Below, in pieces: positions 17,920 to 42,992 of a DNA stretch of 64,000 nt. Origin of the DNA: an uncultured bacterium (lineage in GTDB: Bacteria; Actinomycetota; Acidimicrobiia; Spongiisociales; UBA5794); contig CAWDDT010000011.1 in assembly GCA_963801165.1 (NCBI GenBank), positions 128,001-192,000 of the forward strand. Direction: 5' to 3'. The notes below the pieces were generated by a model, which saw only the letters and a program-made list of their open reading frames with translations, was not told the origin of the DNA and ran no database searches. Numbering within the stretch: position 1 is the first letter of the stretch; the number at the start of each line of letters is the position of its first letter. Both the position numbers and the translations under genes were made by a program.

Positions 17920-20900
17920 TCAGAGCGGCTGGCGGGGGCTTTCGGGGGGGCCCTCGTCGGTGGGGACGAAACTGGCGTCCGTGGTGAGGATGATCTTGTC
18001 GAGAATGAGACCATCATCACCCATGAAGACCTGGAACGTATGCACCCCGCCATCCGAGACCTCGATCGAAACGGGCGTCGGCAAGCGACCCACGTTCGAC
18101 CACGTCCACTCCCCGACCCCATCGCTCCAGCTGCCGTTGCCGCCGGCCGCTACGCCCCCAGCCACATCTCCGTCGATCCCGACAAAGACCCCCTTGGACC
18201 GTATGTCAAGTGCCCATGCGCGCACCCAGACATAGTAGGTGCCCGTCGTGGTGAAATCGATGTCGAAGGTCATCTCGGGCGAGGTCGTCGGCAGATTGTC
18301 GCGCAACCGGGTGCCATCGTCCGGCAGCGCCTGCATCGCCGCCTCCCCGCTGAACCCGGCTGGATCGGTGACCTCGGTCCATGTGTCACCACTCCGGGTG
18401 ATGTTCTCGAAGTAGCTCTCGGCTTCGAAGACGACAGTGCCGTCGGCTTCGATGAAAGCTCCCTCGCCACCGCCCGCCGCAACCGTCACATCATTTGATG
18501 TCATACCAGTCGCACCATCATCATCGGTCGCCGTCAACGACACCGAATAGGTGCCACCACCAGCAAAGCTATGCGACGGTGACTGCAGCGTCGACGAACC
18601 ACCATCACCAAAGTCCCAATCCCAACTGACCACCGAACCATCCGAATCAGACGACGTATCGGTAAACGTGCAATCCAAATCCGTACACGACGAGGTGAAG
18701 TCCGCCGTCGGAGCAACATTCCCGGCAGCAACCGTCACATCATTCGATGTCATACCAGTCGCACCATCATCATCGGTCACCGTCAACGACACCGAATAGG
18801 TGCCACCACCAGCAAACGAATGGCTAGGAGACTGCACACTCGACGTGCCACCATCACCAAAGTCCCAATCCCAACTGACCACCGAACCATCCGAATCAGA
18901 CGACGTATCCGTAAACGTGCAATCCAAATCCGTACACGAGAACGTGAAATCAGCCGTCGGAGCAACATTGCCGCCGGACACCGTCACATCCTGCGCAAAT
19001 GTGCCGGTAGCGCCGTCATCATCGGTCACCGTCAACGACACCGAATAGGTGCCACCACCAGCAAACGAATGGCTAGGAGACTGCACACTCGACGTGCCAC
19101 CATCACCAAAGTCCCAATCCCAACTGACCACCGAACCATCCGAATCAGACGACCCGTCCGTAAACGTGCAGTCCAAATCCGTACACGAGAACGTGAAATC
19201 AGCCGTCGGAGCAACATTGCCGCCGGACACCGTCACATCCTGCGCAAATGTGCCGGTAGCGCCGTCATCATCGGTCACCGTCAACGACACCGAATAGGTG
19301 CCACCACCAGCAAACTATGGCGACGGAGACTGCACGTCGACGTGCCACCATCACCAAAGTCCCAATCCCAACTGACCACCGAACCATCCGAATCAGACGA
19401 CCCGTCCGTAAACGTGCAGTCCAAATCCGTACACGACGACGTAAACGAGGCAGTAGGCGCGACGTTACCCGACGCAACCGTCACATCCTGCGACAGTGCG
19501 CCGGTAGCGCCGTCATCATCGGTCACCGTCAACGACACCGAATAGGTGCCACCACCAGCAAAGCTATGCGACGGTGACTGCAGCGTCGACGAACCACCAT
19601 CACCAAAGTCCCAATCCCAACTGACCACCGAACCATCCGAATCAGACGACGTATCGGTAAACGTGCAATCCAAATCCGTACACGACGAGGTGAAGTCCGC
19701 CGTCGGAGCAACATTCCCGGCAGCAACCGTCACATCATTCGATGTCATACCAGTCGCACCATCATCATCGGTCACCGTCAACGACACCGAATAGGTGCCA
19801 CCACCAGCAAACGAATGGCTAGGAGACTGCACACTCGACGTGCCACCATCACCAAAGTCCCAATCCCAACTGACCACCGAACCATCCGAATCAGACGACG
19901 TATCCGTAAACGTGCAATCCAAATCCGTACACGAGAACGTGAAATCAGCCGTCGGAGCAACATTGCCGCCGGACACCGTCACATCCTGCGCAAATGTGCC
20001 GGTAGCGCCGTCATCATCGGTCACCGTCAACGACACCGAATAGGTGCCACCACCAGCAAACGAATGGCTAGGAGACTGCACACTCGACGTGCCACCATCA
20101 CCAAAGTCCCAATCCCAACTGACCACCGAACCATCCGAATCAGACGACCCGTCCGTAAACGTGCAGTCCAAATCCGTACACGAGGCAGAGAAGTGCGCCG
20201 TCGGAGGAACGTTGGGTGGCGGTGCACCGAGATGAGCGGCGAGACGCGCCGCTAGATCCGCCTGGACTGCGGCGTAGTCTCCGTTGTCCCAGAGGTTCAC
20301 GATCTCCCAAGGGTCGTCGTTGAGGTTGTACATCTCGAACTCGCCCGCTTCGGTCAGATCGACATATTTGTACCAATCACCGTCTGTACCAATCCCGACG
20401 ATCCCGTCGTAGAAGGGATCATTGCCGTGGATGAACCATTCATCTCGCCACGTCGTCTGCGGATCGTTGAGTAGCGGCACCAGGCTCATGCCCTCGACGC
20501 CTATCGTCGGAGTCGCACCGGCAAGATCCGCAAGCGTCGGCGCGATGTCGATGTTGAGCACGTAATCGTCGCTGTTGACGCTCCCCGGGGTGGCTCCGGG
20601 ACAGACGTTGGGCGGGCACACCACTACGTACGGCACCTGATGGCAGGTGTAATACTCGCAGCCCTTGTTCCGCCAATGTTGCTCGCCGTTGGCCATCCCG
20701 TTGTCAGAGATGAAAATCCAGACGGTGTTGTCGAGCCGCCCATCACTCGCCAGTTGATCGTGAAGGGCACCGACCATGTCATCGACCGACAACGTCATCT
20801 CAATGGAATTCGTCATCGTGCGCTCGATCCGGTCAAGGACCCTGTCCGGCAGATCGGTAGTAGGCAGATGAGACGGAGTGTTCGGCGATGGAAGCACGTT

Positions 20901-21803
20901 CGTGGACGGGTAGTGCGGGATGTTGATCCCCTGAAACGCTCCCACGTGTCGATCCTCGACGTTGATCGGCAGATGCGGGCTCGCCGGGTTCAAATCGAGG
21001 AAGAACGGCGTCTGCGTATCCTCCTGAAGGAAGTCGAGCGCCAGCCTGCATACGTAGTCGGTCGAGTAGTAGTTGCCGACGGCGCACGCCTCACCCGATG
21101 TCGAGTCGGCGTTATTGAAGCGCGTGATCAGAGGCTCCTCGTCACCGGCTTGCCAACTGATCCATGGATAGTCGGTGTACGGATCGTCACTGTTGTGAAA
21201 GTCGTGATAGACCTCCCACGTGTCCCAGCCCGGTGGGATGTACCCGGAGAATGGCCCATAGCCGTAACCGTTGAGGTACTTTCCCATCAGCGCATTGCGG
21301 TAGCCGGCAGCCTGCAGCCAGGTGGCGATGGTTGACGAGTCGTCGAGCAGTGATCCGTTGTTATACGTGACGCCGTGGGTGGTCGAGTACTGACCGGTGA
21401 GGATGCTGGCGCGAGAGGGACAGCAGAGCGATTGGGTGACGTTCCCATGGAGAAACGTTATCCCCGCAGATTGGAGAAGGCTCTGGACGTTGGGCATACA
21501 GGCGTCGGCACCCGCGTGGAAGTCATATGGATCCAGTTCCGGACTGCAGCGACCGATCGTGTCCCACTTCTGGTCGTCCGTGACAATAAGGACGAAGTTC
21601 GGTTGACTGGCGCTCTCGGTTGCGGACGGCGCCGGGGGCACTGCAGCGACGGGCGCCGGTGCCACGGTAGTGGTAGGCGCAGCCGGCACAGGCCCGGCCT
21701 CGGATCCAATAGCTTGTGGCTGAAACCCCGAAAACAAGCTCATGAACATCAACACTGCCGACAAGATCGCGAAATACCGATATCTAGATAGACTCGCCCG
21801 CAC
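17920..21803 (-). CDS. Secreted formylglycine-dependent sulfatase + 7 PKD domains + C-terminal carbohydrate-binding-like domain; 1-nt frameshift near 19320-19340
   Basis: Signal peptide, PNFVLIVTDDQ, CCPSRASILTG, GKYLN, SDNG; WDWDFGDG PKD repeats continue across ORFs 19281..21839 and 17920..19290; GTG 21803 with SD AGGAGG. Confidence 0.88.
18472..20213 (-). repeat. Seven tandem 249-bp PKD-coding units; units 1-3 recur near-identically as 5-7 at a 995-bp offset
   Basis: Identical shadow ORFs at 18551/19546 and 18800/19795, and matching N-terminal halves at 19049/20044. Confidence 0.95.
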
Positions 21804-21983
21804 GATGACCCCTCCTATTGCTCGGCGAGCTGTAGCCATCAGACCAGAGGCTCACCTGCCCGCCTCCCTCTGTGCGGGCAATCTCCCAAGCGAACATACG
21901 CGGGAGAGCGCGACGCTGTGCCACTTATTACCGTCTATGACCCGGGACAGGGCAGCGCACAGCCAGGAAGCATCCGTACCGGG

Positions 21984-22490
21984 CTAATACACCAGCTTGC
22001 GCACCGCACGAAGCACGGACCCGTCGGTAACGAGATCGGGCACTGCCGGGAGCGGAACCCAGCGGACGGCGAGCACTTCATCCGAGTCGGCAAGACGCTC
22101 GCTCTTTGCCTCGAGCAGGAACCTGACATCGAAGTGGAGATGGCCCGGTCTATCCCCGTGCGGCGGAATGTCATGCACGTCGACATCGAAGATGCCATCG
22201 CGGAGCGGTCCCCCCACGACACCCGTCTCCTCCTCTACCTCACGGATAGCCGCGGTCAGCACGTCCTCACCCGGTTCGACATGGCCACCCGGCTGGAGCC
22301 AGGTTCTCAGCTTGCCGTGAAGGATGAGCAGCAGGTTGGCATGGGTGGAGTCGAGGACAAAGGCGCTCGCAGTGACATGGCCGGGCGTGTAGAAGCCGGC
22401 GGACATGACCGCGCCTTCGGCACCGATCAGGTCGAGGATCGCCGCGACAGCGTCGCTCTCGCCGGGTGACGGTTCGAAACGCTCGAGCAA
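21984..22490 (-). CDS. NUDIX hydrolase (start uncertain)
   Basis: GHVTASAFV, Nudix box GGHVEPGE...AAIREVEEETG, HLHFDVRF. Confidence 0.9.
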   Translation of the reverse strand: MLERFEPSPGESDAVAAILDLIGAEGAVMSAGFYTPGHVTASAFVLDSTHANLLLILHGKLRTWLQPGGHVEPGEDVLTAAIREVEEETGVVGGPLRDGIFDVDVHDIPPHGDRPGHLHFDVRFLLEAKSERLADSDEVLAVRWVPLPAVPDLVTDGSVLRAVRKLVY

Positions 22491-22529
22491 GGCTCGCAGC
22501 TGGAGGCGGTGCTGGTCGGAGATGGTTGG

Positions 22530-22880
22530 CTAGACGAACTCGATGATGGCCATCTCGGTGCCATCACCACGCCGTGGGCCCAACTTGACGATTCGTGTGT
22601 AACCGCCGTCACGATCCTCGTAACGCGGCGCGACATCGTCGAACAATTTGGTCACCACAGCCTTGTTCTGGATTCTGCGGAGAACCAGCCGCCGGGCATG
22701 GAGATCGCCGCGCCGGGCCTTGGTGACCATCTTCTCAACGTACGGACGGAGCAACTTGGCACGCGTCGCGGTGGTCGTTATCCGCTCTTCCTGGATGAGC
22801 GATGCCGCCATGTTGGCGAGGATCTTCCGCTGATGCGACGGGCTCCCCCCGATACGGGGACCCTTCTTCGGCTTTGGCAT
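22530..22880 (-). CDS. rplQ: 50S ribosomal protein L17
   Basis: ITTTATRAK, GGYTRIVKLGPRRGD. Confidence 0.98.
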   Translation of the reverse strand: MPKPKKGPRIGGSPSHQRKILANMAASLIQEERITTTATRAKLLRPYVEKMVTKARRGDLHARRLVLRRIQNKAVVTKLFDDVAPRYEDRDGGYTRIVKLGPRRGDGTEMAIIEFV

Positions 22881-23830
22881 CAGACACGCTCCTCGACTTC
22901 ACCCGAGTGAGTGAGAGAAAGACCCAGCTCGTCGAGCTTTGCGGTGACCTCTTCAAGGCTCTTCTGCCCGAAGTTGGTGATGTTGAGCAGCTCGTCTTCG
23001 GTCTTCTGCACCAGCTCGCCCACCGTCTGGATCTGCGCCCGCCGCAGACAGTTGCGAGGACGTTCGGAGAGGTCAAGCGCCTCGATGGGAAGATCGAGGT
23101 CGGGTGACGTCGATTCGGCGGTGACGATGTCGCCGAGCTCCAGCCCTTCGCCCTCGTCCATGTCGGCGAACAGGCCAAGCAGCTCGCGCAGCGTCTTGCC
23201 GGCCGACGAGACGGCTTCGCTGGCCGACAGCGACGAGTCCGTTTCGACGTCGAGAATGAGCCGGTCGAAGTTGGTCACCATGCCCACCTGGGTGTCATCG
23301 ACACGGAAGGCGACCTTGCGTACCGGAGAGAAAATGGAGTCGATGGGGATGACGCCGATCGTGTCGCTCTTGGAGTTGTGCTCGGCGGAGCGGTAACCGA
23401 CGCCCCGCTCGGCCGTCATCTCGACTTCGAGGGCCCCCGACGACGAGAGCGTCGCCAAATGGAGATCGGTGTTGACGACCTCGATACCTGCAGGCACCTT
23501 GATGTCGCCGGCGGTCACCTCGCCGGCACCCTTGGCGGAGAGGTACAGGGTGTGTGCGCCGTCGCCCTCGACCCGCAGCACGACCCGCTTCAGATTGAGG
23601 ATGAAATCGACAACGTCCTCGACGACTCCCTCGATCGTAGAGAACTCGTGATGGACTCCTTCGATTCGTACCGAAGTGATCGCGGCACCGGGGATACGGG
23701 CGAGCAGGGCACGCCGCAGAGTGTTGCCGAGCGTGTGGCCGAAACCGCGCTCGAGCGGTTCCACAACGAACCGCGAGCGGTTGTCGCTGACCTTCTCTTC
23801 TTCAATATGGGGACGCTGGACGATGAGCAC
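22880..23830 (-). CDS. rpoA: RNA polymerase alpha subunit
   Basis: EPLERGFGHTLGNTLRR, DSIFSPV, alpha-CTD NFGQKS. Confidence 0.98.
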   Translation of the reverse strand: MLIVQRPHIEEEKVSDNRSRFVVEPLERGFGHTLGNTLRRALLARIPGAAITSVRIEGVHHEFSTIEGVVEDVVDFILNLKRVVLRVEGDGAHTLYLSAKGAGEVTAGDIKVPAGIEVVNTDLHLATLSSSGALEVEMTAERGVGYRSAEHNSKSDTIGVIPIDSIFSPVRKVAFRVDDTQVGMVTNFDRLILDVETDSSLSASEAVSSAGKTLRELLGLFADMDEGEGLELGDIVTAESTSPDLDLPIEALDLSERPRNCLRRAQIQTVGELVQKTEDELLNITNFGQKSLEEVTAKLDELGLSLTHSGEVEERV

Positions 23831-23857
23831 GCTCTGCTCCTCCGACTCGGGCTAGGA

Positions 23858-24463
23858 CTACTTCGAGTAAAGCTCGACAACTAGTTGTTCTTTGATCTCT
23901 GTGTCGATCTGTTCACGGCTGGGAACGACGGTCACCGTGGCGGTGCGGGTGTTGGCATCGACGTCGAGCCACTCGGGTGCCGAGCGGTCGATTGTGTCGA
24001 TGGCCTGCTGCACCGCAAAGGTATCTTTGCTGCGCTCCTTGATGGTCACGACATCGCCTGCCCGTACCTGGTACGAGGGGATGTCGACCTTGCTGCCGTT
24101 GACGCGGAAATGGCCATGATTGACCAGCTGCCGCGCCTGGGGGCGGGTACGCGCAAAGCCAGCGCGATACACCACGTTGTCTAAACGACACTCGAGGATC
24201 TGCAAGAGGGTCGTACCGGTGATGCCGGAAGCGCGGTTCGCCTGTTTGTAGTAGCGACGGAACTGCTTCTCGAGCACACCGTAGATGTGACGCAGCTTCT
24301 GCTTCTCGCGAAGCTGGACGAGGTACTGCGATTCACGGATACGACCGCGCCCATGGTCACCCGGCGGGTAGGGCCGACGATCGAAGTACTTGGCCTTGTT
24401 CTCGTCGAGAAGCTGGCGCGCCCTGCGGCTGACCTTGGTACGGGGTCCGGTGTATCGAGCCAT
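23858..24463 (-). CDS. rpsD: 30S ribosomal protein S4
   Basis: MARYTGP, LREKQK, RLDNVVYR, VELYSK. Confidence 0.98.
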   Translation of the reverse strand: MARYTGPRTKVSRRARQLLDENKAKYFDRRPYPPGDHGRGRIRESQYLVQLREKQKLRHIYGVLEKQFRRYYKQANRASGITGTTLLQILECRLDNVVYRAGFARTRPQARQLVNHGHFRVNGSKVDIPSYQVRAGDVVTIKERSKDTFAVQQAIDTIDRSAPEWLDVDANTRTATVTVVPSREQIDTEIKEQLVVELYSK

Positions 24464-24853
24464 CTAGCGACCCTTCCGCTTCTTCGGACGGCAGCCGTTG
24501 TGCGGGATCGGTGTGTTGTCCCTGATCCCGGTGACCTCGATACCCATGTTCTGCAGGGTTCGGATGGCCGTATCACGCCCGGAGCCCGAACCGGCGACGA
24601 TCACGTCGAGTTTCCGCATCCCCATCTCACCTGCTTTACGGGCGGCCTGTTCGGCTGCAACCTGGGCCGCATACGGTGTCGACTTGCGGGACCCCTTGAA
24701 ACCGACCGAGCCGCCGGAGGTCCAAGCTTGAACCCGGCCCTCTTGATCGGTGATGGTGATGATTGTGTTGTTGAAACTCGCCTTGATGTGCGCCTGGCCG
24801 TGGGAGATATTCCTCTTGACCTTGCGACGGCTGCGTTGCTGGGGCTTCGCCAC
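24464..24853 (-). CDS. rpsK: 30S ribosomal protein S11
   Basis: [20 protein letters not shown]. Confidence 0.98.
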
Positions 24854-24871
24854 TTGCTACCTCTCCGCGAC

Positions 24872-25249
24872 CTACTTGGTGACCTTCTTCTTACCCGCAA
24901 TGGCAACGGCCTTGCCTTTGCGGGTGCGCGCATTGGTGTGGGTGCGCTGCCCACGAACCGGGAGACCGCGACGATGACGGAAACCCTGGTAGGAACCGAT
25001 CTCGATCTTCCGCTTGATGTTCTGGGAGACCTCGCGACGTAGGTCACCTTCAACCGTGAGGTTGGCGTCGATGTACTGGCGGATCCGAACAACTTCGCTG
25101 TCGGTGAGATCACGCACCTGCGTACCCCGATCGATATCGAGATCGTCGAGGATCTGGTGTGAGGTCCTCAGACCGACACCGAAGATATAGGTGAGACCGA
25201 TCTCGACACGCTTATCTCTGGGAAGGTCGGTTCCGGCAATACGAGCCAT
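24872..25249 (-). CDS. rpsM: 30S ribosomal protein S13
   Basis: [24 protein letters not shown]. Confidence 0.98.
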
Positions 25250-25253
25250 ACAG

Positions 25254-25367
25254 TTACCCCTGACGCTGCTTGTGGCGCGGGTTGGAGCAGATCACCCAAA
25301 CGCGCCCATGCCGGCGAATCACCCGGCATTTCTCACACATCTTCTTTACGGACGCTGATACTTTCAT
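25254..25367 (-). CDS. rpmJ: 50S ribosomal protein L36 (Zn type)
   Basis: Manual translation [37 protein letters not shown]. Confidence 0.97.
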
Positions 25368-25585
25368 CGGTACCTGTAAATAATCCTGCCGCGTTCGAGG
25401 TCATAGGGAGACATCTCGATGCGCACCTTATCTCCGGGCAGGATCCGGATGTAGTTCATCCGCATCTTGCCAGAGATATGGCACAACACTTCGTGCCCAT
25501 TGTCGAGCTTCACCCTGAACATGGCGTTCGGAAGAGGCTCGACGACGGTGCCTATTACCTCAATTACGTCGTCTTTTTTAGCCAC
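25364..25585 (-). CDS. infA: Translation initiation factor IF-1
   Basis: [20 protein letters not shown]; GTG 25585. Confidence 0.97.
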
Positions 25586-25696
25586 AAGAAATTGCCGGCC
25601 CGGACTTGGGCCGGACGGCAACTATAGAAACTCCTGCAAGCGTGAGCAAATCGCACGCGCAAACCACGTGCAACCAGAGACGAGCTGCCTCACTAC

Positions 25697-25731
25697 ACAG
25701 TATACGGTCGTCACCGGCTGTTCAAGGGTCT
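25697..25731 (-). promoter_or_regulatory. Putative promoter of the infA-alpha operon
   Basis: AGACCC-TTGAAC-N17-TACTGT (overlapping TATACT). Confidence 0.6.
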
Positions 25732-25841
25732 GGCACCAACACATGACCAGGCCGTCTCGTCGGGAATCGAGCTGTGTCACAGCAACTGATCCGGCGAAGC
25801 GGCACACGAACCGCTTGCTCGATGCTTCCTAGACTCCCCTG

Positions 25842-26915
25842 ATGGGTCAATTGAGTGTCGGCATCATGGGAGCAGGATCGATCGGCTGCTACGTCGGCGG
25901 CCGGCTGCTCGCCTCCCGAGCCGCCGACGTCACGTTTGTTGGTCGTGAGCGAGTGGCACAAGAGCTCGCTGAACACGGTCTGACCGTACGGGACCACAAC
26001 AACGCGGTGACGATCTCGCCCGAGCACATTACGTTCGCAAGTGATCCGGCGGCTGTTGCCGGATGCGACGTCATCGCCGTCTCCGTCAAGAGTGCACATA
26101 CCCCTGAGGTGGGTCAAGACCTCGCCGACGTACTACCGCCGGGAACCACCGTCGTCAGCATCCAGAACGGTGTCCGCAATGCCACGACCCTGCGGGAGAG
26201 CCTCCCCACCTGCACGGTGGTCGCCGGCGTCGTCGACTTCAACGTGGTTTCGCTCGGCGACGGGGTGTTCCACTGTGGTCTCGGCGGTGGCCTGTCGTTC
26301 GCCCGCGGCGCCGCAGCTCTAGCGGACTCGCTTCGCAATGCTGGTTTCGCCGTCACCGAGCATGCCGACATCGCCCCGATCCAGTGGACCAAACTGCTCG
26401 TCAACCTCAACAACGCCGTTAGTGCGCTTTCCGATGTTCCGACCCGCGAGATGCTTGCTAGCCGCAGCTACCGGAGAGTGATCGCCGCTCTCATCACCGA
26501 GGGTGTAGCCACTCTACGAACTGCGGGGATTCGCCCGGCGCCATTGCGAGGTCTGCCCGTGGCACTGATGCCAAGGATTCTGCGTCTTCCCGACGCCCTT
26601 GCCCACATCGTGTTGCGTGCCCAGATCCGCGCCGATCCGCACGCCCGGTCCTCGATGTGGGAAGACCTGACCCGGCGGCGCTCGACCGAGGTCGATTTTC
26701 TCAATGGTGAGATCGTGAGACTCGGCGCCGACGCTGGTGTATCCGCCCCGCTCAACAGCCGCATGGTCGAGCTGGTCCACGCCGCAGAAGCTGCCGGCGC
26801 GGGCCCGCCGGGCATCAGCGCCGGTGCGCTGTGGGATGAGCTGCGCGCCGCGGGCAGGTTTGACTTCGCTCCCGCCGCGCGGTGGCTCCGCCGCGCTACT
26901 CGGTCGTGGTTCTAA
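25842..26915 (+). CDS. panE: 2-dehydropantoate 2-reductase family protein
   Basis: GAGSIG, QNG, WTKLLVN, SSMWEDL, TEVDFLNG; TAGACT 6 nt upstream of ATG (leaderless). Confidence 0.85.
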   Translation: MGQLSVGIMGAGSIGCYVGGRLLASRAADVTFVGRERVAQELAEHGLTVRDHNNAVTISPEHITFASDPAAVAGCDVIAVSVKSAHTPEVGQDLADVLPPGTTVVSIQNGVRNATTLRESLPTCTVVAGVVDFNVVSLGDGVFHCGLGGGLSFARGAAALADSLRNAGFAVTEHADIAPIQWTKLLVNLNNAVSALSDVPTREMLASRSYRRVIAALITEGVATLRTAGIRPAPLRGLPVALMPRILRLPDALAHIVLRAQIRADPHARSSMWEDLTRRRSTEVDFLNGEIVRLGADAGVSAPLNSRMVELVHAAEAAGAGPPGISAGALWDELRAAGRFDFAPAARWLRRATRSWF

Positions 26916-27004
26916 GGATGTCGTGGTTCCAAGGATGTCGTGGTTCTAAGGATGTCGTGGTTCTAAGGATGTCGTGGTTCTAAGGATGTCGTGGTTCTAA
27001 GGAT
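26903..27004 (+). repeat. Six tandem copies of 17-bp GTCGTGGTTCTAAGGAT
   Basis: Direct reading; copy 2 has one T>C change; copy 1 contains the panE TAA stop. Confidence 0.97.
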
Positions 27005-27124
27005 ATTGAAGGGCGACATCCGCAAGGGCCAGCAATCCCCCATCTCGGGGGGATCGGACGGGCGCAGCCCGGCCGAGGGGGACACAGCCAACGGCGACCA
27101 TCGCTTGTCCTTCCGCCCGGTTTC

Positions 27125-27147
27125 TTGTCACTGGCGGTTGATACCTT
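27125..27147 (+). promoter_or_regulatory. PafBC / RecA-NDp-type DNA-damage promoter, leaderless
   Basis: TTGTCACTG-GCGGTTGA-TACCTT versus consensus tTGTCRGtg-N8-TAnnnT; ATG 6 nt downstream. Confidence 0.7.
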
Positions 27148-27153: not shown

Positions 27154-28270
27154 ATGTTGTTTACCGATCCCGATGTTGTCGTCGATTTCCGGGCCGAGTT
27201 GGCAGAGAACAATGCCGACATTGCCCGTCTCCAGGCACGCCAGTTGACCCTGCTCAACCAGCTACACCGGGCCGGGGTCGCTCAGGCCGACGGGGCCCGC
27301 TCCATGATCGACTGGACCGCAGCCACCCTGGACGTCAACCACAACAACGCTCAGCAAATGGTCGATGCCGCCAATCGCATGTACCGCACCGACCCGCACC
27401 TATACCGACAGTTCGAAGCCGGCGACATCACCTTCGACCGGGCCATCGCCACCCTCAACCTGATCGGCACCCAAGCCCCCACCGCTGTCATCGAACGCAG
27501 CCTCCACATCGATCTGACCGCAGTCAACCGGCTCACCCACCAGTACCGGCGGATCACCCGCAAAGACGAACAACAAGCCTTCTGTGACCGCTACTTCACC
27601 ATCCAACCCAACCTGGACAACACACAATGGCGGGGCAGCTTCGAACTCCCCGCCACCGAAGGCTCCATCGTCGACCAAGCCATCGCCGGGCAAGCAGACC
27701 AGCTACGACGGCTCCCCGGCTCGGACCGTTACACCCGCAGCCAACTCAACGCCGACGCCCTGGTGATGATCTCCCAAGACTCCCTCGACAACAACACCAC
27801 CGGCACATCTTCAGGCTGTTCGGCGGCCACGGTGTTTGTTGATTTGGACCGGGCCAACGGCACATCCGGTGAGATGGGTGTCGAGCTGCGAATACGGACC
27901 GAGGGTCGGACCAACCGTCCTTGAAGAAGTTCTGTGTGGCGGCACCGTCCGCATCGTCGGACTAAAAGACGGTCAACCCGTCGTCACCACCCGGGCAACC
28001 TCGACAATCCCACCCGCGATACGTGACTTTGTGGCCTGGCGCGACAAAAGCTGCATCGTCAACGGCTGCCACAGCCGCTACCGCCTCCAAATCCACCACA
28101 TCAACCACCGAGCCCACGGCGGCGACCACGACCCCAACAACCTCGCAACCTTGTGCTGGTTCCACCACCACATCGCCATCCACCACACCGGATTCACCCT
28201 CAACCTGAGCGACCCACCCCACTGTCGCAGACTCATCAAACCCAACCACGCCCACGACCCACCCCGGTGA
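27154..28270 (+). pseudogene. DUF222 / 13E12-repeat-family HNH endonuclease, 1-nt insertion frameshift near 27886-27889
   Basis: N-terminal DGARSMIDW..., ADALV; C-terminal RDKSCIVNGC...IHHI...GG.....NLATLCWFHH; frames join at GTC GAG CTG c GAA TAC. Confidence 0.8.
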
Positions 28271-33931: not shown

Positions 33932-34470
33932 CCTGAGACTCCTGCCTTGCCTGCCTTGCGCCGCACCTGTTCACCGGCGTAGCGAATGCCCTTGCCTTTG
34001 TACGGCTCGGGGGGGCGTACCCTGCGGATGTCCGCAGCGACCTGCCCCACCAGCTGTTTGTCGATCCCGGTCACGGTGATCTTGGTGTTCTCCGGCACCT
34101 GGAACTCGATCCCTTCCGGGGGCTCGACGAGCACCGGGTGCGAGAACCCAACGAGCAGCTCGAGTGCCGTACCCTTGAGCGACGCGCGATAGCCGACGCC
34201 AATCATCTCGAGGTTCTTCTGATAGCCCTCGGATACGCCGACGACCATGTTGTTGAGCAGCGCCCGGCTGAGACCGTGCAGTGCCCGGGTCTCCCGCTCG
34301 TCGTTCTGGCGTGCGACCTCTACTCGCCCCTCGCCCACATTGAACGAGATGCGCGAGTCGAACGTGCGCTCCAGGCTGCCTTTAGCCCCCTTCACGGAAA
34401 CGTCGGAGCCGCTGACCGCGATCTCGACGCCGCCGGGGATCGGCACGGGATTGTTACCTATACGGCTCAT
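33928..34470 (-). CDS. rplF: 50S ribosomal protein L6
   Basis: [19 protein letters not shown]. Confidence 0.98.
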
Positions 34471-34473
34471 ACG

Positions 34474-34872
34474 TCACCAAACCTCACAGAGGACCTCGCC
34501 ACCGACGTTGCGCCGGCGTGCCTCTCTATCGGTGAGCAAGCCCTCTGACGTCGAGACGATCGACACCCCGATACCGCCGCGCACTCGCTCGAGGTCCTTG
34601 GCGCCCTTGTAGATGCGGTGCCCGGGGGTGGAGATGCGGCGGATACCCTGGATGACACGATCGCGGTTGTTGTTCACGTACCGCAACGTCATCGTGAGCT
34701 CCTTGCCCACCCTGGCTTCCTCGACCTTGAAGCTGTCCACGAAGCCCTCGGAGGCAAGGATCTTGGCGATCTCCTCCTTGAGCTTCGACGACGGCATCGA
34801 TACCTGCGGGTGCAAAGCCATGTTGGCGTTGCGCACCCGGGTCAGCATGTCGGCGATCGGATCAGTATTCAT
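34474..34872 (-). CDS. rpsH: 30S ribosomal protein S8
   Basis: [22 protein letters not shown]. Confidence 0.98.
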
Positions 34873-35057
34873 TACCAGGAGGCCTTTCTGACTCCGGGGA
34901 GCTCGCCGCGATGGGCCAGCTCACGAACGCAAATGCGGCACATCCCGAACTTGCGCATGTACGCACGAGGGCGACCGCAACGCCGGCAACGGCTGTAGGC
35001 GCGCACCTCGAACTTCGGCTTGCGTTTGGCCTTGGCGATCATCGACTTCTTCGCCAT
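34872..35057 (-). CDS. rpsN: 30S ribosomal protein S14 (Zn type)
   Basis: RCRRCGR...[13 protein letters not shown]. Confidence 0.97.
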
Positions 35058-35614
35058 CACACACCTGCCTGTTGCTTACGGAACGGGAATCCGAACGCGT
35101 CGAGCAAGGCCTTGCCCTGCTCGTCGTTCTCGGCAGACGTCACAAACGTGATGTCCATGCCACGTACCTTCTGGACACTGTCATAGTTGATCTCAGGAAA
35201 TATCAGCTGCTCGTCGACGCCGAAGCTGTAGTTGCCGCGACCATCAAAACCTTTCGGGCTCAGCCCGCGAAAGTCACGGATCCGGGGAATCGCTGCCGAC
35301 ACGAGCCGATCGAAGAACTCCCACATGCGCGCACCGCGCAGGGTCACCGACGCGCCGACAGGAAGACCCTCACGCAGCTTGAAGTTGGCGATGGACTTCC
35401 GGGCTTTGCTCACCTTGGGGTGCTGCCCGGTGATGATTCGAAGATCCTCGACGGCACCGTTGATCAGCTTGCCATCCTGGACGACGTCGCCGACACCCAT
35501 ATTGACAACGATCTTCTGCAAGTGCGGCACCTGCATCACATTGCTGACACCGAGCTGCTTTTGCAGCGCGTCGCGGATCTCCTTGTCGTACTTCTCCTTG
35601 AGCCTGGGAATCAT
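35057..35614 (-). CDS. rplE: 50S ribosomal protein L5
   Basis: [21 protein letters not shown]; start ATG 35614. Confidence 0.98.
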
Positions 35615-35919
35615 CCGAGGTCTCCCCCACACTTGCGGCAGACCCGGTACTTGACGCCGTCTGCGTCGTTCCGGACGCCGATCTTGGTAGGGCCACAGTC
35701 CGGGCACACGATCATGACGTTGGAGACGTCGATCGGCATGTCCTTGTCGATGATGCCGCCCTGCATCGTCTGGCCCTGAGGACGTTGGTGGCGTTTGGCG
35801 GTGGCAACACCCTCGACGATCACACGGTTCTTGCGCGGGATCACCCGGGCGATCTTGCTCTCCGTGCCCTTGTCCTTGCCTGCGATCACCTTCACGGTGT
35901 CACCGGTCTTGAGCTTCAT
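35611..35919 (-). CDS. rplX: 50S ribosomal protein L24
   Basis: [16 protein letters not shown] motif. Confidence 0.97.
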
Positions 35920-36287
35920 CACAGCACCTCCGGAGCCATCGAGACGATTCGCATGAACTGCTTGTCACGCAACTCGCGGCCGACCGGGCCGAAGATACGG
36001 GTGCCCCTGGCCTGCTGCTGGTCGTTGATGATCACACAGGCGTTGTCGTCAAATCGTATGTAGGTTCCGTCCTTGCGGCGACTCTCCTTGCGAGTGCGCA
36101 CAACGACGGCCTTGACCACGTCACCCTTCTTGACCCCACCGCCCGGTATGGCGTCCTTGACGGTGCCGACGATGATGTCGCCGAGACCGGCGTAGCGGCG
36201 CGATGAGCCACCCAGCACGCGGATGCACAGCAGCTCGCGGGCGCCGCTGTTGTCCGCGACCTTGAGTCGCGTTTCTTGCTGAATCAT
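35919..36287 (-). CDS. rplN: 50S ribosomal protein L14
   Basis: [15 protein letters not shown]. Confidence 0.98.
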
Positions 36288-36541
36288 CGGGCTCTCTCCA
36301 CAACTTCGCTGACACGCCAGCGCTTCGTCTTCGACATGGGTCGGGTTTCTACGATCCGGACGGTGTCACCGAGGTGCGCATCATTCAGCTCGTCGTGAGC
36401 ATGGAATTTCTTGCGCACCCGAACCGTCTTGCCGTATCTCGGGTGAGTCTTGGACTCGACGATCTCTACGGTAACCGTCTTGTCCCGTACATCGGAAATC
36501 ACGACACCGGTTCTGATCTTCCTACGGGCACGTTCTGTCAT
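36284..36541 (-). CDS. rpsQ: 30S ribosomal protein S17
   Basis: [17 protein letters not shown]. Confidence 0.97.
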
Positions 36542-36759
36542 CACGCTTCCTCCTGGAGGTTCTCCCAGGCAGCGATCTCCTGTTCACGGAGGACCGTGCT
36601 GATTCTGGCGACCTCACGCCTCACCTGGCGGAGCCGGGCGGTGTTATCGAGTTGGTTGGTTGCCAGCTGGAATCGCAGGTTGAACATCTCTTCCTTGGCT
36701 TCGTTGAGCTTCTCGGCCAGCTCGGCCGAGTCCAGATCTCGGAGTTCGAACGCCTTCAT
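36541..36759 (-). CDS. rpmC: 50S ribosomal protein L29
   Basis: [17 protein letters not shown]. Confidence 0.96.
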
Positions 36760-37169
36760 CAATCCTCCCGGGTCACGAACTTGGTCTTTATCGGGAGCTT
36801 GTTCCCGGCGAGCCGCATTGCTTCACGAGCCAGGTCCTCTTCGACACCGGCCAGCTCGAACATGACACGCCCCGGCTTGATGACGGCAACCCAGTATTCA
36901 GGATTCCCTTTTCCGGATCCCATTCGGGTCTCTGCAGGCTTCTCGGTTACCGGCTTGTCGGGGAAGATGTTGATCCATACCTTCCCGCCACGCTTGATCT
37001 TCCGGGTCATGGCGACACGAGCTGCCTCGATCTGACGGGCCGTGATCCAGCCCGGCTCTTGCGCCTGCAGACCGAACTCGCCGAAGGTGACGCGGGTGCC
37101 ACCCTTGGCCTTTCCGGCCATCCGGCCCTTCTGGACCTTGCGGTACTTGGTGCGCTTGGGCATCAGCAT
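36759..37169 (-). CDS. rplP: 50S ribosomal protein L16
   Basis: [18 protein letters not shown]. Confidence 0.98.
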
Positions 37170-38347
37170 CAGTCGTCACCCCCCTGATCGTCGGCGACGT
37201 CTTCGGGCTTCGAGTCATCGGCAGCCGCTTCGGGCTTCGAGTCGTCAGCGGCCGCTTCGGGCTTCGAGTCGTCAGCGGCCGCTTCGCCGGACGCGGCATC
37301 CTCTACAGCCTCGGTGACCGGCTCGGTCTTCGCCTCGACTACCTCGACCACCTCGGCACCGGCTTCGACCGTCTCGACCGCCTCGGCGCCGGCGCCGGTA
37401 TCGGTGACTTCTTCGGTGGCGACAGCCGCTGTCTCATCGGCGAGGACATCTTCGGCATCGGAGCGAGCCATCTCGAAAGCGTCCCTGGCGTCGCTCGTCG
37501 TCATGGTGTCGTCGCCATCCTCGGAGCGCTTGCCCCGCCGCTTGCCACCACCGGCCTCGATAAGACGCTTGCCCCCACCGGCCTCGATGATGCGGCGTTG
37601 CTTGCCACCACCGGCCGCTTCTTCGGCACGAGACTTGGCGGACTTGCGTCGGCGCGCCGACGGGCCGCCCGCGGCGAGCCGCGCCTCGGCCTCGATCTTC
37701 TCGCGATTCGCTGCCAGCGACGGGATGACCTCACCCTTGTAGACCCATACCTTGACGCCGATGGCGCCGACGGCGGTGCGCGCAGTCGCCTGCCCGTAGT
37801 CGATATCGGCACGGAGGGTATGGAGCGGAACCCGTCCTTCCAGGTACCACTCGCGTCTACCCATGTCGGCGCCGCCAAGACGACCTGCCGCCTGCACCCT
37901 TACCCCTTCAGCGCCGGCCTTGAGCGCGGTGGATACGGCGCGCTTCATCGCCCGACGGAACGAGACGCGTCCCTCGAGCTGATCGGCAACGCTGCGGGCG
38001 AGCAGCGTGGCGTCGGTCTCGGCGTTCTGCACCTCGTTGACGTTGAACTTGACGATCTTCCGGGTCAGCTTCTCGAGCCCGGCACGAAGCCGTTCGGCCT
38101 CAGAGCCGCCACGTCCGATGACGACACCGGGGCGGGCGGTATGTATGTCGACCTGAACCTTCTTGTCACCGATGCGCTCGATGTCGATACGGGACACAGC
38201 GCCACGCCGGAGCTCGTTCTGCAGGTATTTGCGAATGTCCCAGTCTTCGTTGACGTGATCGGCGTAGTCGATATCCGAGTACCAGCGCGACTTCCAGTCG
38301 GTGACGATGCCCAGGCGGAAGCCGTATGGGTGTACTTTCTGGCCCAT
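37169..38347 (-). CDS. rpsC: 30S ribosomal protein S3 with long C-terminal extension
   Basis: [27 protein letters not shown]; about 185 extra C-terminal residues. Confidence 0.97.
37202..37285 (-). repeat. 3x 27-bp in-frame repeat (EAAADDSKP) in the rpsC tail
   Basis: Direct reading. Confidence 0.9.
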
Positions 38348-38703
38348 CAGGCGTCCTCTCCTTCGAATTCCTCGTCGTCGGCCACCACAATGGTGATGTG
38401 GCTTGTTCGTTTGTTGATCCGTGTAGCACGACCACGGGCACGGGGGCGCCAGCGCTTCAAGGTCGGTCCCTCATCTGCGTATGCCTCGGCAACAAACAGC
38501 TCCTCGGCATCAAGCGCCAGGTTGTGCTCTGCGTTGGCGACGGCAGACTCGAGCACCTTCTTGATCGTGGGTGCCGCACGCCGGTTCGTAAAATCGAGTG
38601 TCGCCCTGGCCTCATCCACCGGCATGCCGCGCACGAGATCAAGGACGCGACGCACCTTGTATGGCGATTGCCGCACGTATTTTGCTTGCGCCCGAGCCTT
38701 CAT
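38347..38703 (-). CDS. rplV: 50S ribosomal protein L22
   Basis: [21 protein letters not shown]. Confidence 0.98.
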
Positions 38704-38978
38704 CGTCTCCTCGCCGACTTGTCACCAGAATGGCCGCGGAAGGTGCGCGTTTGGGCAAACTCGCCCAACTTGTGCCCAACCATCGATTCGCTGACATAGA
38801 CCGGCACGTGCTTGCGGCCGTCGTGCACCGCGATGGTGTGGCCCACCATCTCCGGTGTGATGGTGGAACGCCGGCTCCACGTCCGGATTACTTTCTTCTC
38901 ACCTCTGGCGTTCGCCGCTTCGACCTTCTTCATGAGATGGTCGTCGACGAACGGGCCCTTCTTCAAAGATCGAGCCAT
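38700..38978 (-). CDS. rpsS: 30S ribosomal protein S19
   Basis: [21 protein letters not shown]. Confidence 0.98.
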
Positions 38979-38980
38979 GT

Positions 38981-39814
38981 TTATCTCCGACCCTTCTTGG
39001 TCCTGCGGCGGACGATGTACTTATCGCTTGCCTTGTTCTTCTTGCGGGTCCGGCCCTCCGGCTTGCCCCATGGGCTGACCGGGTGACGCCCACCCGAGCT
39101 ACGGCCCTCTCCACCACCGAGCGGATGATCGACCGGGTTCATGGCGACACCACGCGATTGGGGGCGATTGCCTTTCCACCGGCTGCGCCCGGCCTTCCCG
39201 AGCTTCACCAGCTCGGCATCCTGGTTTCCGACCTGGCCAACGGTGCCACGGCAATCCAGCTCGACCTGCCGCATCTCGCCTGAGGGGAGGCGTAGCAACG
39301 CGTAGCCGCCTTCCTTGGACATCAGCTGGATGGCGGTACCTGCGGCCCGACCGAGCTTGGCCCCGCCTCCGGGACGGAGCTCGACGGCGTGGACCGTTGT
39401 GCCGGTGGGGATGTTGCGCAGCGCCAGAGCGTTCCCGGGTCGGATATCGGCCCCCGAACCGGATTCGACGATGTCGCCAACCTCGAGGCCGACCGGGCTC
39501 AGGATGTACCGCTTCTCACCATCGTGATAGTGGAGCAGTGCGATGCGGGCGTTGCGGTTGGGGTCGTACTCGATCGAGGCAACAGTGGCGGGAACCCCGT
39601 CCTTGTTGCGCCGGAAATCAACGATACGATAACGACGCTTGTGACCGCCGCCGCGATGGCGCGAGGTTATGCGCCCGTAGGAGTTGCGGCCGGCCGAGCT
39701 CGGCTTCTTGGCGAGCAGGCTCTTCTCGGGTTTGCTCGTTGTGACGCTCTCGAAGTCGGAGACGGTCTGAAACCGGCGTCCCGGTGATGTCGGTTTTAGC
39801 TTCTTGACGCCCAT
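38981..39814 (-). CDS. rplB: 50S ribosomal protein L2
   Basis: [23 protein letters not shown]; start ATG 39814. Confidence 0.98.
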
Positions 39815-39815
39815 G

Positions 39816-40106
39816 TCAGACCTCGAAGATGTCGATTGAATTGCCAACAGCGAGCGTGACCATGGCCCGCTTGGTGTCGGGGCGTCTGCCCGTCTTCCAA
39901 CCGGTCCGCTTCAGCTTGCCCTTACGGTTGATTGTGTTCACCTGGAGCACCTTGACGTCGAAGATGGACCCGATGGCCTGCTTGATCTCCGTCTTGTTGG
40001 CACGCTTGTCCACGACAAAGGTGTAGGTGTTGCTCTCCTGGATGAGGTCGTAGGACTTCTCGGAGACAACCGGTGCGAAGACGATGTCGCGCGGGTTCTT
40101 GCTCAT
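39816..40106 (-). CDS. rplW: 50S ribosomal protein L23
   Basis: PVVSEKS, ANKTEIK. Confidence 0.97.
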
Positions 40107-40789
40107 GAGTCCTCCCGGGTGCTCTCATTGACACCGGCGGCGTGTTCCATGGTGCCGCGGGGCGTTCCTTGACCGAGCTCGAGCGTTCCCTGGCTCATGA
40201 CGATGGTGTCCGCCCACAGCACGTCGTAGGTGTTGGCCTGGCCAACCCTGCTGGCGATCACGCCATCGATGTTGCGGAACGACTTGATCGCGGTCTGCTC
40301 ATGGTCCTCAGCGAGCAGGAGGACCTTGCCTGCGACACCCATGGCATCCAGCAGGTTGAGTGCATTCTTGGTCCTGGGGGTGTCCCAGACGTCAAAGGTC
40401 TCCACAACTTTGATGCGACCGTCGGCGGCGCGCACCGACAGTGCGCTCCGGAGAGCCAGCCGCTTCATCTTCTTCGGTGTCCGTTGCGAGTAGTCGCGTG
40501 GCTTCGGCCCATGAGCGACCCCGCCGCCTATCCACTGCGGGGAGCGAATCGAACCCTGCCTGGCCCGACCCAAACCCTTCTGCCGCCACGGTTTCCTACC
40601 ACCGCCACGAACCTCGCCACGGGTCTTGGTCGAATGGGTGCCGGCACGGGCCGCGGCCAACTGCGCCGTTACGACCTGGTGCATAACCGCCATGTTGGGC
40701 TCGATGCCGAAGATCTCGCTCTTCAGCTCGACGGTCCCCGTCATGGTTCCGTCGGCGCTGTATAGATCGGCCGTCAACTTGTCAGCCAT
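40103..40789 (-). CDS. rplD: 50S ribosomal protein L4
   Basis: [19 protein letters not shown]. Confidence 0.98.
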
Positions 40790-41420
40790 TGCTCTTCACC
40801 GCCTCTCGCATGACCAGAACCGCACCTTTAGGACCGGGAACGGCGCCGCGCAACATGACGACGTTACGCTCGGCGTCGATCTTGACGACCTCCAGATTCA
40901 TCATCGTCACCTGGTCGCCACCCATACGGCCCGGGAGCCGCTTGCCCTTGAAAACACGGGACGGGGTGGCACAGGCTCCGATAGAACCGGGTGCCCGGTG
41001 CACCTTGTGGGCACCGTGGCTGGCTCCTTGTCCCTGGAAATTGTGTCGCTTCATGACGCCGGCAAAGCCTTTGCCCTTGGTGATCCCGGTCACATCCGCC
41101 TTCTTGCCCTCGGCGAGCACATCGGCGATACCGATCTCCTGACCCAGCTTGTATTGATCGGGGTCGTCGACACGAACTTCGACAATGTACTTCGCCGGAG
41201 GGGTATTCGACTTCGCAAAGTGACCGGCCGTCGCACTGTTGACGTGTTTGCTCGCCATCTCCTTGAAGGCAATCTGAATTGCCGAGTAGCCGTCTGTGCC
41301 GGCGCGCTTGATCTGAGTGACCCGAACCGGCCCAGCTTTGATGATGGTCACGGGGATGGCCCGTGCTTCATCATCAAAGATCTGAGTCATGCCCAGTTTC
41401 TCTCCGAGGATGGTATTCAC
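40782..41420 (-). CDS. rplC: 50S ribosomal protein L3
   Basis: [22 protein letters not shown]. Confidence 0.98.
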
Positions 41421-41728
41421 CTCTTGATCTCCACTTCCACGCCGGCAGGGAGGTCAAGACGCATCAGGGACTCGACTGTCTTGGGGGTGGGCTCCAGAAT
41501 GTCGATGAGCCGCCGGTGGATACGCATCTCAAAGTGCTCCCGGCTGGTTTTGTCTACATGCGGGCCCCGGATTACGCAGTAGCGATGAATCCGGGTCGGC
41601 AGTGGCACCGGACCCTTGATTTTCGCTTGAGTGCGAATCACGGTCTCTGCAATCTTGCGCGCCGACTCGTCGACGACCGAATGGTCGTACGCCTTGAGTC
41701 GGATGCGGATCCGATGTTCGTCTGCCAT
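41417..41728 (-). CDS. rpsJ: 30S ribosomal protein S10
   Basis: [17 protein letters not shown]; start ATG 41728. Confidence 0.98.
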
Positions 41729-41773
41729 TGTCTTTCTCAGTCCTCTCTGCGTGGAGCTGCGGAGCAACTCCAA

Positions 41774-41795
41774 CCTGACCGCCTACGCGGTCAGG
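41774..41795 (-). terminator. Hairpin immediately after tuf
   Basis: CCTGACCGC-GTAG-GCGGTCAGG; weak U tail. Confidence 0.5.
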
Positions 41796-41798
41796 CGG

Positions 41799-42992
41799 CT
41801 ACTTGATGATGTTGATGACCCGACCAGCACCGACAGTACGGCCACCCTCCCGAATCGCAAACCGCAACCCCTCATCCATAGCAATCGGCTTACCCAACTC
41901 CACCGTCATCTCAGTGTTATCACCAGGCATCACCATCTCAGTACCCTCAGGCAAAGACACCGTCCCAGTCACATCCGTCGTCCGGAAATAAAACTGCGGC
42001 CGATACCCATCAAAAAACGGGTTATGCCGACCACCCTCATCCTTAGTCAACACATACACCTGAGCCACAAAATTCGTATGAGGCGTAATCGAACCAGGCT
42101 TAGCAACCACCTGACCCCGCTCCACCGCATCCTTCCCAATCCCCCGCAACAACAACCCAACATTGTCCCCAGCCTGACCCTCATCAAGCAACTTACGGAA
42201 CATCTCAACACCAGTCACCGTCGTCGACTGCACATCCCGCAAACCAATGATCTCAACCTGCTCACCAACATGAATCACACCAGTCTCAATACGGCCAGTC
42301 ACCACCGTCCCCCGACCAGTAATCGAAAACACATCCTCAATCGCCATCATGAACGGCTTATCCGTCTCCCGCACCGGCTCAGGAATATACGAATCAACCG
42401 CATCCATCAACTCATGAATAGACGCAACCGCCGCCGGATCATTCTCCTCCAAAGCCTTCAAAGCAGACCCACGAACAACCGGAATGTCATCCCCAGGAAA
42501 CTCATACTCAGTAAGAAGATCCCGAACCTCGAGCTCAACCAGATCCAACAACTCCTCATCATCAACCTGATCAGTCTTATTCATATACACAACAATGTAA
42601 GGAACACCAACCTGACGAGCCAACAACACATGCTCACGAGTCTGCGGCATCGGACCATCAGCAGCAGACACCACCAAAATCGCCCCATCAACCTGAGCAG
42701 CACCCGTAATCATGTTCTTCACATAATCAGCATGCCCCGGCATATCAACATGCGCATAATGACGATTCGCCGTCTCATACTCCACATGAGCAATCGCAAT
42801 CGTGATACCCCGCTCCCTCTCCTCAGGAGCCTTATCAATCTCATCAAACGCCGTAAACTTCGTCGACCCCGACCCCTCCTCAGACAACACCTTCGTAATC
42901 GCAGCCGTCAAAGTCGTCTTCCCATGATCAATATGACCCATAGTCCCAACATTCACATGCGGCTTCGTCCGCTCGAACTTCTCCTTAGCCAT
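41799..42992 (-). CDS. tuf: Elongation factor Tu
   Basis: [32 protein letters not shown]. Confidence 0.99.

Follow-up and report, generated by a model that had tools for sequence, protein, structure and literature searches.

Why do three unrelated sequences in one stretch of bacterial DNA share the same strand bias? The whole stretch analysed (the window; 64,000 nucleotides, C11:128001-192000, where C11 is contig CAWDDT010000011.1) is part of a 4.55 Mb, 13-contig genome with 64% GC, named G000 here, whose completeness and contamination are estimated as 98% and 5.6%. Uncultured Actinomycetes and Acidimicrobiales metagenome-assembled genomes (MAGs) are its best named relatives by tuf. The three sequences are tuf, the gene of EF-Tu; a tandem array of PKD units within a sulfatase gene; and a gene of the DUF222-HNH type. 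A first-pass annotation of the window had claimed that all three are rich in C and A on the plus strand whatever their coding direction, and that this bias follows repeat status and chromosome strand, not transcription. The first claim was confirmed by skew windows and codon counts. The second was supported for tuf and for tandem arrays, was not supported as a rule for all repeats (p=0.13 among outlier genes), and was ambiguous for the DUF222-HNH gene.

The results indicate a shift toward G and T on the leading strand that is tied to repeats that homogenise, that reverses with replication orientation and that is not transcriptional. The silent-site shift is a partition of keto versus amino bases, and it matches the substrate partition of the mismatch-repair enzyme NucS. 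The most likely process, held here with about even confidence, is a strand-asymmetric, keto-biased gene conversion in sequences homogenised by intragenomic recombination, namely the two tuf genes and the tandem PKD, SLH and other arrays.

Silent sites of tuf and of the PKD array

The minus strand is the leading strand in the region of the window, because the GC skew of contig C11 is -0.031 and the majority of genes are on the minus strand. The str/S10/spc/rpoBC cluster is located on the minus strand within the window.

Silent sites were measured with the synonymous index TS, which was calculated from third codon positions on the coding strand as T/(T+C) - A/(A+G) and was chosen to take out amino-acid effects. 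The 3,783 genes of G000 were obtained with a purpose-written script based on open reading frames (ORFs) and codon likelihood; these calls are approximate, and the key results were repeated without gene calls. Replichores were assigned by GC skew, not by mapped origins. One comparator locus (L016) was taken from an unpublished genome (G021). The baseline TS of unique genes was +0.046 (standard deviation, SD, 0.068) when leading-coded and -0.034 (SD 0.073) when lagging-coded. Genome-wide, 50 of 22,731 windows of 600 bases had an absolute difference between AT skew and GC skew above 0.55. These were merged into 25 regions, among which are the PKD array, the DUF222-HNH gene, tuf and, as a fourth, the second tuf copy.

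The tuf gene is an outlier by 12.6 SD (TS 0.893, z=12.6). Its third positions are G 201, T 175, C 21 and A 0, so that 376 of 397 codons (95%) end in G or T. The four-fold sites hold T 102, G 104, C 6 and A 0, the two-fold pyrimidine codons T 53 and C 10 (84% T-ending), and 19 of 24 leucine codons are TTG. Each four-fold amino acid is encoded by G-ending as well as T-ending codons (GGG 16 and GGT 21, GCG 13 and GCT 17, GTG 24 and GTT 18). On the plus strand, 300-base windows across 41.9-42.8 kb have a GC content of 0.48-0.53, a GC skew of -0.38 to -0.43 and an AT skew of +0.24 to +0.30. The GC content of the gene is 0.52 versus 0.64 for the genome, and its third-position GC is 0.56 versus about 0.78 for genome third positions, with third-position T raised to 0.44. 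The reading frame is open, and the protein is 92% identical to those of congeners. The 34 other minus-strand genes around tuf, including fusA, rpoB, rpoC and ribosomal protein genes, have a mean TS of 0.036 and a maximum of 0.13.

A second tuf copy is found at C11:192944-194137, about 23 kb away and 944 bases past the window end, with the same codon statistics and protein; a 1231-base repeat spans both copies by self-BLAST. The PKD array consists of repeated units and the DUF222-HNH gene has paralogues, so the earlier view that all three regions are repeated is borne out.

The PKD array provides a comparison inside a single gene. Third positions of the PKD part are T 123, G 122, C 58 and A 5, and its two-fold pyrimidine codons are T 60 and C 22 versus C 82 and T 35 in the sulfatase part. 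The TS is 0.637 in the array versus 0.065 in the remainder of the gene, and the use of the sulfatase domain as a within-gene control therefore holds. On the plus strand, 300-base windows across 18.5-20.0 kb have a GC content of 0.55-0.57, a GC skew of -0.19 to -0.29 and an AT skew of +0.30 to +0.36. Alignment of the units revealed mosaic blocks common to several of them, which fits ongoing conversion. A 1-base deletion in unit 4 (about 19300-19340) makes the gene read as two ORFs that overlap at 19281-19290; the deletion is either a true frameshift or an assembly error within the repeat. The coordinates of all features are collected in Table 1.

Table 1 Features of the window, with positions counted from its first letter.
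Feature	Positions	Strand	Evidence and remarks
Sulfatase - PKD x7 - GH115_C-like gene	17920..21839	minus	Two ORFs, 19281-21839 and 17920-19290; Pfam
Tandem PKD array, 7.0 units of 249 bases, 89% matches	18473..20210	minus	TRF; Pfam PKD_4/PKD
Unique sulfatase part (within-gene control)	20220..21839	minus	Third positions G 175, T 96, A 48, C 221
DUF222-HNH gene, frameshifted	27154..28267	plus	DUF222 27154-27924, HNH motif in another frame 27770-28267; Pfam
tuf (EF-Tu), copy after fusA	41799..42992	minus	Pfam, codon counts
fusA, upstream neighbour of tuf (control)	43007..45091	minus	TS 0.03, normal silent sites

Tandem arrays, tuf copy number and mobile genes

Coding tandem arrays with a confident replichore (n=36) were compared by replication orientation. 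The 16 leading-coded arrays had a TS of +0.314 inside the repeat, with 14 positive, and the same genes had +0.003 outside it. The 20 lagging-coded arrays had -0.145 inside, with 15 negative, and -0.058 outside. The sign thus reverses between the two orientations (Mann-Whitney p=5.6e-5). Arrays of at least 85% identity gave +0.398 when leading-coded and -0.206 when lagging-coded, and those below 85% gave +0.130 and -0.069. In repeats, the strand asymmetry exceeds that of unique genes several-fold to about 20-fold. All array reading frames are kept, save for the single 1-base deletion in the PKD array.

The result does not depend on gene calls. In the gene-call-free test, 61 of 71 arrays were G+T-rich on the leading strand, with a mean of +0.128 versus +0.032 in the flanks (p=1.6e-6), and arrays outside called genes behaved in the same way in 17 of 20 cases. 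In tandem arrays the G+T skew thus follows the replichore and exceeds that of unique DNA, and arrays and tuf both show the shift in the synonymous index, from which amino-acid effects are removed.

First and second codon positions are also affected: the keto fraction in arrays is 0.536 when leading-coded versus 0.459 when lagging-coded (p=0.001), and the drive therefore reaches the protein. The SLH family (Pfam) is present in both orientations with opposite TS signs. Leading-coded SLH units read FVDDDGSVFE... and are rich in G, V, F and W, and lagging-coded units read FTDDNSSIHE... and are rich in T, H, N and P (e.g. C4:812154-812603 versus C5:178878-179347). The SLH arrays of a congener (G005) gave +0.12 for 22 leading-coded and -0.17 for 23 lagging-coded arrays (p=1e-4), and 10 of 10 of its arrays with an absolute TS above 0.35 and a usable local skew had the predicted sign.

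The dependence of tuf on copy number was analysed across the class. Genomes from an Acidimicrobiia-wide search were picked by copy number and assembly quality, and were grouped by copy number and identity; among close relatives, tuf third positions range from normal to 95% G/T. When two tuf copies were 98.1-100% identical, tuf was G/T-rich in 18 of 18 genomes, with a TS of 0.30-0.80 beside an adjacent fusA at -0.07 to +0.06. Two genomes with copies diverged to 85-87% identity were both normal (TS 0.04-0.14) and belong to a family in which G/T-rich members also occur. Single-copy tuf in assemblies of at most 10 contigs was normal in 14 of 14 genomes (TS -0.16 to +0.08). Six fragmented MAGs with one assembled copy were mixed (TS 0.05-0.75), with tuf at a contig end in two of them. 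These data indicate that across Acidimicrobiia the G/T enrichment depends on near-identical, converting copies. GC skew in the flanks of 60 tuf loci was positive in 37, with a mean of +0.02, and is a weak indicator of leading-strand placement. Many independent assemblies show this tuf pattern, which makes an assembly artefact improbable. Horizontal transfer of tuf was considered and set aside.

An 80-gene tuf panel covering all bacteria contained a sole extreme case, the Acidimicrobiales MAG G194, which has two identical copies. NucS_C is present in G194, and MutS_V was looked for in it and not found. Four named Proteobacteria with tuf copies 99.4-99.8% identical had a TS of 0.01-0.15, near that of their own fusA (0.01-0.18), so outside the class a near-identical pair does not suffice. 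A fifth, with 100% identical copies, had 0.22, and no fusA was recovered from it for comparison. MutS_V is present in both of the two Proteobacteria searched among these five (G185 and G187).

The DUF222-HNH gene is C/A-rich, but more weakly than tuf and the PKD array. On the plus strand, 300-base windows across 27.2-28.4 kb have a GC skew of -0.25 to -0.44 and an AT skew of +0.26 to +0.34. The third positions of the plus-coded DUF222 part are C 145, G 53, A 32 and T 26, and the TS is -0.23 on the plus coding strand, which is lagging (about -2.7 SD). Three further matches were found by tblastn, with 95%, 71% and about 39% amino-acid identity, and an intact copy of 371 residues is located at C6:358527-359645. 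All five genes of the DUF222/HNH type are lagging-coded (C11:155154, C6:358527, C5:444217, C4:269009-270059 and C4:17306-18916). The two closest copies (95% protein identity, both lagging-coded) have a TS of -0.22 and -0.29, and the 71% paralogue on C5 has -0.12. Relative to this paralogue, the two closest copies carry 58 changes from G/T to C/A and 31 in reverse. This direction agrees with what the drive would predict, yet the attribution is ambiguous, because all five copies are lagging-coded and mobile genes have a negative TS on both strands.

Mobile genes limit the scope of the claim. The negative tail of TS consists largely of transposase, integrase, HNH and toxin-antitoxin-type genes on both strands. 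Genes at least 50% covered by self-BLAST repeats (n=100) showed a small mean TS shift (0.091 versus 0.041) with wide scatter and many counter-examples, mostly mobile elements. Among genes with an absolute z above 3, 15 of the 19 with a positive and 18 of the 33 with a negative value were leading-coded, so the sign is not tied to the strand (Fisher p=0.13). A general rule for all repeated DNA is thus not supported, nor do dispersed mobile genes follow it, and the claim is therefore narrowed to homogenising repeats.

Three observations stand apart from this. Six copies of a 17-base unit (97% matches) lie at 26903-27004, just upstream of the DUF222-HNH gene, and run against the general trend, with their G+T excess on the plus (lagging) strand. 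The most extreme negative value in the genome belongs to a transposase-like fragment at C6:521610-522122 (TS -0.61, z=-8.4; third positions C 0.69, A 0.17). Among positive outliers that lack an explanation, the strongest (TS +0.53, z=7.2) is a non-repeated, response-regulator-like gene at C8:14758-15438; its contig is 21 kb long, in an assembly with 5.6% estimated contamination.

Base changes and the process behind them

Normal and G/T-rich tuf orthologues were compared at identical amino acids in six pairs. From normal to G/T-rich, the first pair showed C->T 105, C->G 40, A->G 4, A->T 5 and 29 exchanges between G and T, and no change from G/T to C/A. Over the six pairs, such reverse changes numbered 0-2 in four, and 5 and 12 in two cross-family pairs, versus 175 and 140 in the opposite direction. 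The four-fold log-odds in leading-coded arrays shifted by 1.34 for T:C, 1.00 for G:A, 0.98 for G:C and 1.36 for T:A. Within classes there was little movement, with -0.36 for G:T and 0.02 for C:A. The corresponding four shifts in tuf were 3.9, 4.0, 2.95 and 4.9. This near-equal shift of the four keto:amino odds fits a fixation bias, as in conversion, better than deamination-type mutagenesis, because a uniform advantage of keto over amino bases is expected of a fixation bias; under deamination, C->T should far outnumber A->G.

The first-pass annotation had loosely likened the bias to fungal repeat-induced point mutation (RIP). A RIP-like process was rejected because the genes stay intact and transversions take part: the reading frames are open and conserved, C->G and A->T are both present, and the four keto:amino odds shift equally. 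Its pointer to nucS was apt. G000 has a NucS_C match of 133 bits, and MutS_V and MutL_C were searched for in this 98%-complete genome and not found.

NucS cleaves only G/T, G/G and T/T mismatches, according to the accessible part of PMC6159521. In Mycobacterium smegmatis, the available text of PMC11551744 describes oligonucleotides that target the lagging strand as strongly favoured; on the lagging-strand template they are rejected if they form a G-T or G-G mismatch and accepted with C-A, A-C, C-C, A-A or G-A, with a repair patch of 5-6 bp. In Salmonella tuf conversion, poorly recognised mismatches were preferentially converted, as stated in an excerpt of PMC5485169.

A mechanism built on these properties would run as follows. 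NucS/EndoMS, the only mismatch repair found, would act on G/T, G/G and T/T alone. A strand copied from one repeat unit would take the place of nascent lagging strand on another unit and pair with its lagging-strand template. Mismatches made of G and T only would be corrected back to the template, and C/A, C/C and A/A mismatches would go uncorrected and end as conversions, so that the surviving donor alleles place C or A opposite the template. Because of this difference, the template, which carries the leading-strand sequence, would gain G or T only and never lose them. Variants with a leading-strand G or T would spread between copies, and variants with C or A would be erased. Such a lagging-strand topology would account for the base partition and the observed sign, and it would also explain why the effect acts site by site and requires exchange that is still under way.

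A broader form of this proposal is a general force that acts wherever NucS is the only mismatch repair and recodes any recombining repeat to leading-strand G/T. This is tentative, with the chances somewhat against it. It would overpower codon selection in tuf, the most highly expressed gene, and would alter the amino acids of surface repeats according to orientation. Repeat families of NucS-bearing Archaea and of other Actinobacteria could be shaped by it as well.

Several points weigh against keto-biased conversion by NucS. The sign is the weakest link: it hangs on one assumed topology, and other topologies, among them invasion of the donor by a 3' tail of the recipient, predict the opposite sign. 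The proposed link of NucS to the pattern is drawn from sequence comparison, and the comparative hint across taxa is mixed. G194, with NucS and no MutS_V found, and the four Proteobacteria whose tuf lies near fusA are on one side. On the other are two MutS-bearing, non-actinobacterial MAGs, G190 (L240/L245) and G192 (L244/L247), whose identical tuf pairs are moderately G/T-rich (TS 0.50-0.55 versus 0.15 for fusA), with TTG common for leucine. Therefore, some enrichment arises without NucS, or another cause acts there; the same drive in weaker form, or codon selection, could account for it. In another genome (G024), two tuf matches have equal scores, yet K3 is only 0.56.

The arrays also hold contrary cases. 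The effect is weak (p=0.03) in G016, a genome with more diverged arrays. A surface-protein array of 390-base units at C6:178881-180021 is lagging-coded by local skew and has a TS of +0.38, and the array at C5:313280-313685 is leading-coded by local skew and has -0.24. A plus-coded flagellin gene, 92-93% identical to minus-coded copies, retains their positive TS. Phylum-wide, only four PKD arrays were detectable by TRF in 20 regions, a small sample. One, from Acidimicrobiia, is lagging-coded with a TS of -0.27, and one has an unusable skew. The remaining two, from other classes, gave no support, with K3 of 0.37 versus 0.35 (no shift) and 0.39 versus 0.51 (the wrong way), for n=2 only. All p-values overstate the evidence because kin genomes and related arrays are not independent. 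Finally, a strongly asymmetric mutation process at compositional equilibrium could mimic most of the composition.

Two features of the contigs that carry these arrays are recorded here. The C6 array sits about 20-40 kb from the GC-skew switch of that contig (about 200-220 kb). On C5, a 40 kb segment (C5:280000-320000) has an inverted GC skew, and the array inside it carries the silent-site sign of the surrounding replichore; this segment may be a recent inversion.

The mutational alternative is the strongest rival, and we regard it as unlikely though serious. It holds that the lagging-strand template of repeats is exposed as single strand for longer, because of slipped structures, forks that stall or restart, or recombination intermediates, and that C and A on this strand are deaminated (C->T, A->G) at a much higher rate than in other DNA. 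It agrees with the restriction to repeats and with the sign relative to replication, C->T is the commonest change (105 of the 154 that lead from C/A to G/T in the first tuf pair), and at equilibrium it would deplete C and A alike. Against it, the shift is no smaller for A:G than for C:T and is equal for G:C and T:A, and the genes are intact. Adenine deamination is much slower than cytosine deamination. Two genomes of the same family with diverged tuf copies show nothing, which a homology threshold could explain. The same direction of asymmetry, C->T and A->G favoured on the leading strand, is found genome-wide in wild-type mutation-accumulation lines of Corynebacterium glutamicum, according to the consulted portion of PMC6159521. 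However, tuf conversion is rare, at 2e-8 to 1e-5 per generation in repair-proficient Salmonella by the figures in the excerpt of PMC5485169, and the exposure seems too brief for it to govern mutation.

A second rival supposes three unrelated causes that share a sign by coincidence: mRNA codon selection in tuf, amino-acid and codon peculiarities of PKD amplified by duplication, and foreign codon usage of DUF222-HNH as mobile DNA. Overall it is quite improbable. The chance that three items agree in sign is 1 in 4, and the DUF222-HNH gene indeed resembles mobile or foreign genes, whose TS is negative on both strands; with five of five DUF222-type copies lagging, strand and gene family are inseparable. 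For tuf and the arrays, however, coincidence is largely refuted. The sign reverses with replication orientation in 36 arrays of G000 and 45 of G005, with SLH in both orientations, and arrays left non-coding by the gene calls are also affected. The normal tuf of all 14 single-copy and both diverged-copy genomes argues against it as well. Translational selection on tuf was rejected: GGG and T-ending two-fold codons are freely used, unlike known translational optima, and fusA, rpoB/C and ribosomal protein genes are normal.

Transcription-associated asymmetry, in which C->T and A->G accrue on the non-transcribed strand of heavily transcribed genes, is barely credible: tuf and flagellin are typically highly expressed and have a positive coding-strand TS, including the plus-coded flagellin copy, but the reading is contradicted by the opposite sign on the coding strand of lagging-coded arrays. 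The effect also reaches non-coding arrays, and it is absent from single-copy tuf and from fusA, rpoB/C and ribosomal protein genes.

Significance and known systems

If keto-biased conversion is the process, it would be the first known biased gene conversion that is polarised by the replication strand and that favours the keto over the amino class rather than G+C. It would also be a natural, genome-encoded readout of NucS-type repair on recombination heteroduplexes in vivo, so far approached only by oligonucleotide recombineering. In that case, a non-adaptive drive can bring the codon endings of an essential gene with high expression to about 95% G/T and can bias the amino acids of surface repeats. 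To detectors of codon usage and horizontal transfer, the driven genes look foreign or lowly expressed, and silent-site rates in repeats are not neutral clocks. In draft genomes, the composition of repeats may also show which way a region is replicated and where a recent inversion lies. In the literature searched, no description of a G/T-recoded tuf or of a replichore-polarised repeat composition was found.

Fungal RIP acts on duplicated DNA with C->T/G->A changes only, is strand-coordinated and inactivates the repeats; it involves a RID-type cytosine methyltransferase and has premeiotic timing. The pattern described here is similar in that duplicated DNA is targeted and transitions are strand-coordinated. 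It differs in that the genes look functional, transversions are included and the direction is set by replication.

GC-biased gene conversion (gBGC) was reportedly proposed for bacteria too by Lassalle et al. in 2015. Similar to gBGC, the process proposed here would be a fixation bias from heteroduplex mismatch repair, would act where recombination is frequent, would mimic selection and could override codon preference. Unlike gBGC, which favours G+C on both strands, G+T is favoured here on one strand, the GC content of tuf falls, and the sign is set by the replication orientation.

The concerted evolution of tufA and tufB in Salmonella is similar in that two tuf copies are homogenised by conversion in dependence on mismatch recognition (PMC5485169, in part). 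The available part of that paper reports no compositional drive, and four Proteobacteria here have a tuf TS near that of fusA.

The replication asymmetry and NucS/EndoMS specificity described in the accessible parts of PMC6159521 and PMC11551744 share the gain of G/T on the leading strand, the same base partition and the setting in Actinobacteria without MutS/MutL. The skew in those published excerpts is modest and genome-wide, whereas here only recombining repeats are affected, with a TS of 0.3-0.9 versus 0.05 for unique leading-strand genes.

The nearest statement found in print is a 2026 preprint on paralogous regions of Mycobacterium tuberculosis, where T>C enrichment is described and recombination-associated repair asymmetries with NucS are suggested as something that might reshape composition (PMC13061034, in part). 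Gene conversion, NucS and the base composition of paralogous regions are linked there as they are here. The change described there is T>C, less NucS action is proposed, and the available portion of the preprint mentions neither a strand or replichore polarity nor a near-complete recoding of a core gene.

With biased gene conversion in the broad sense, the pattern shares both an effect that is confined to sequences in exchange and a uniform shift of the log-odds.

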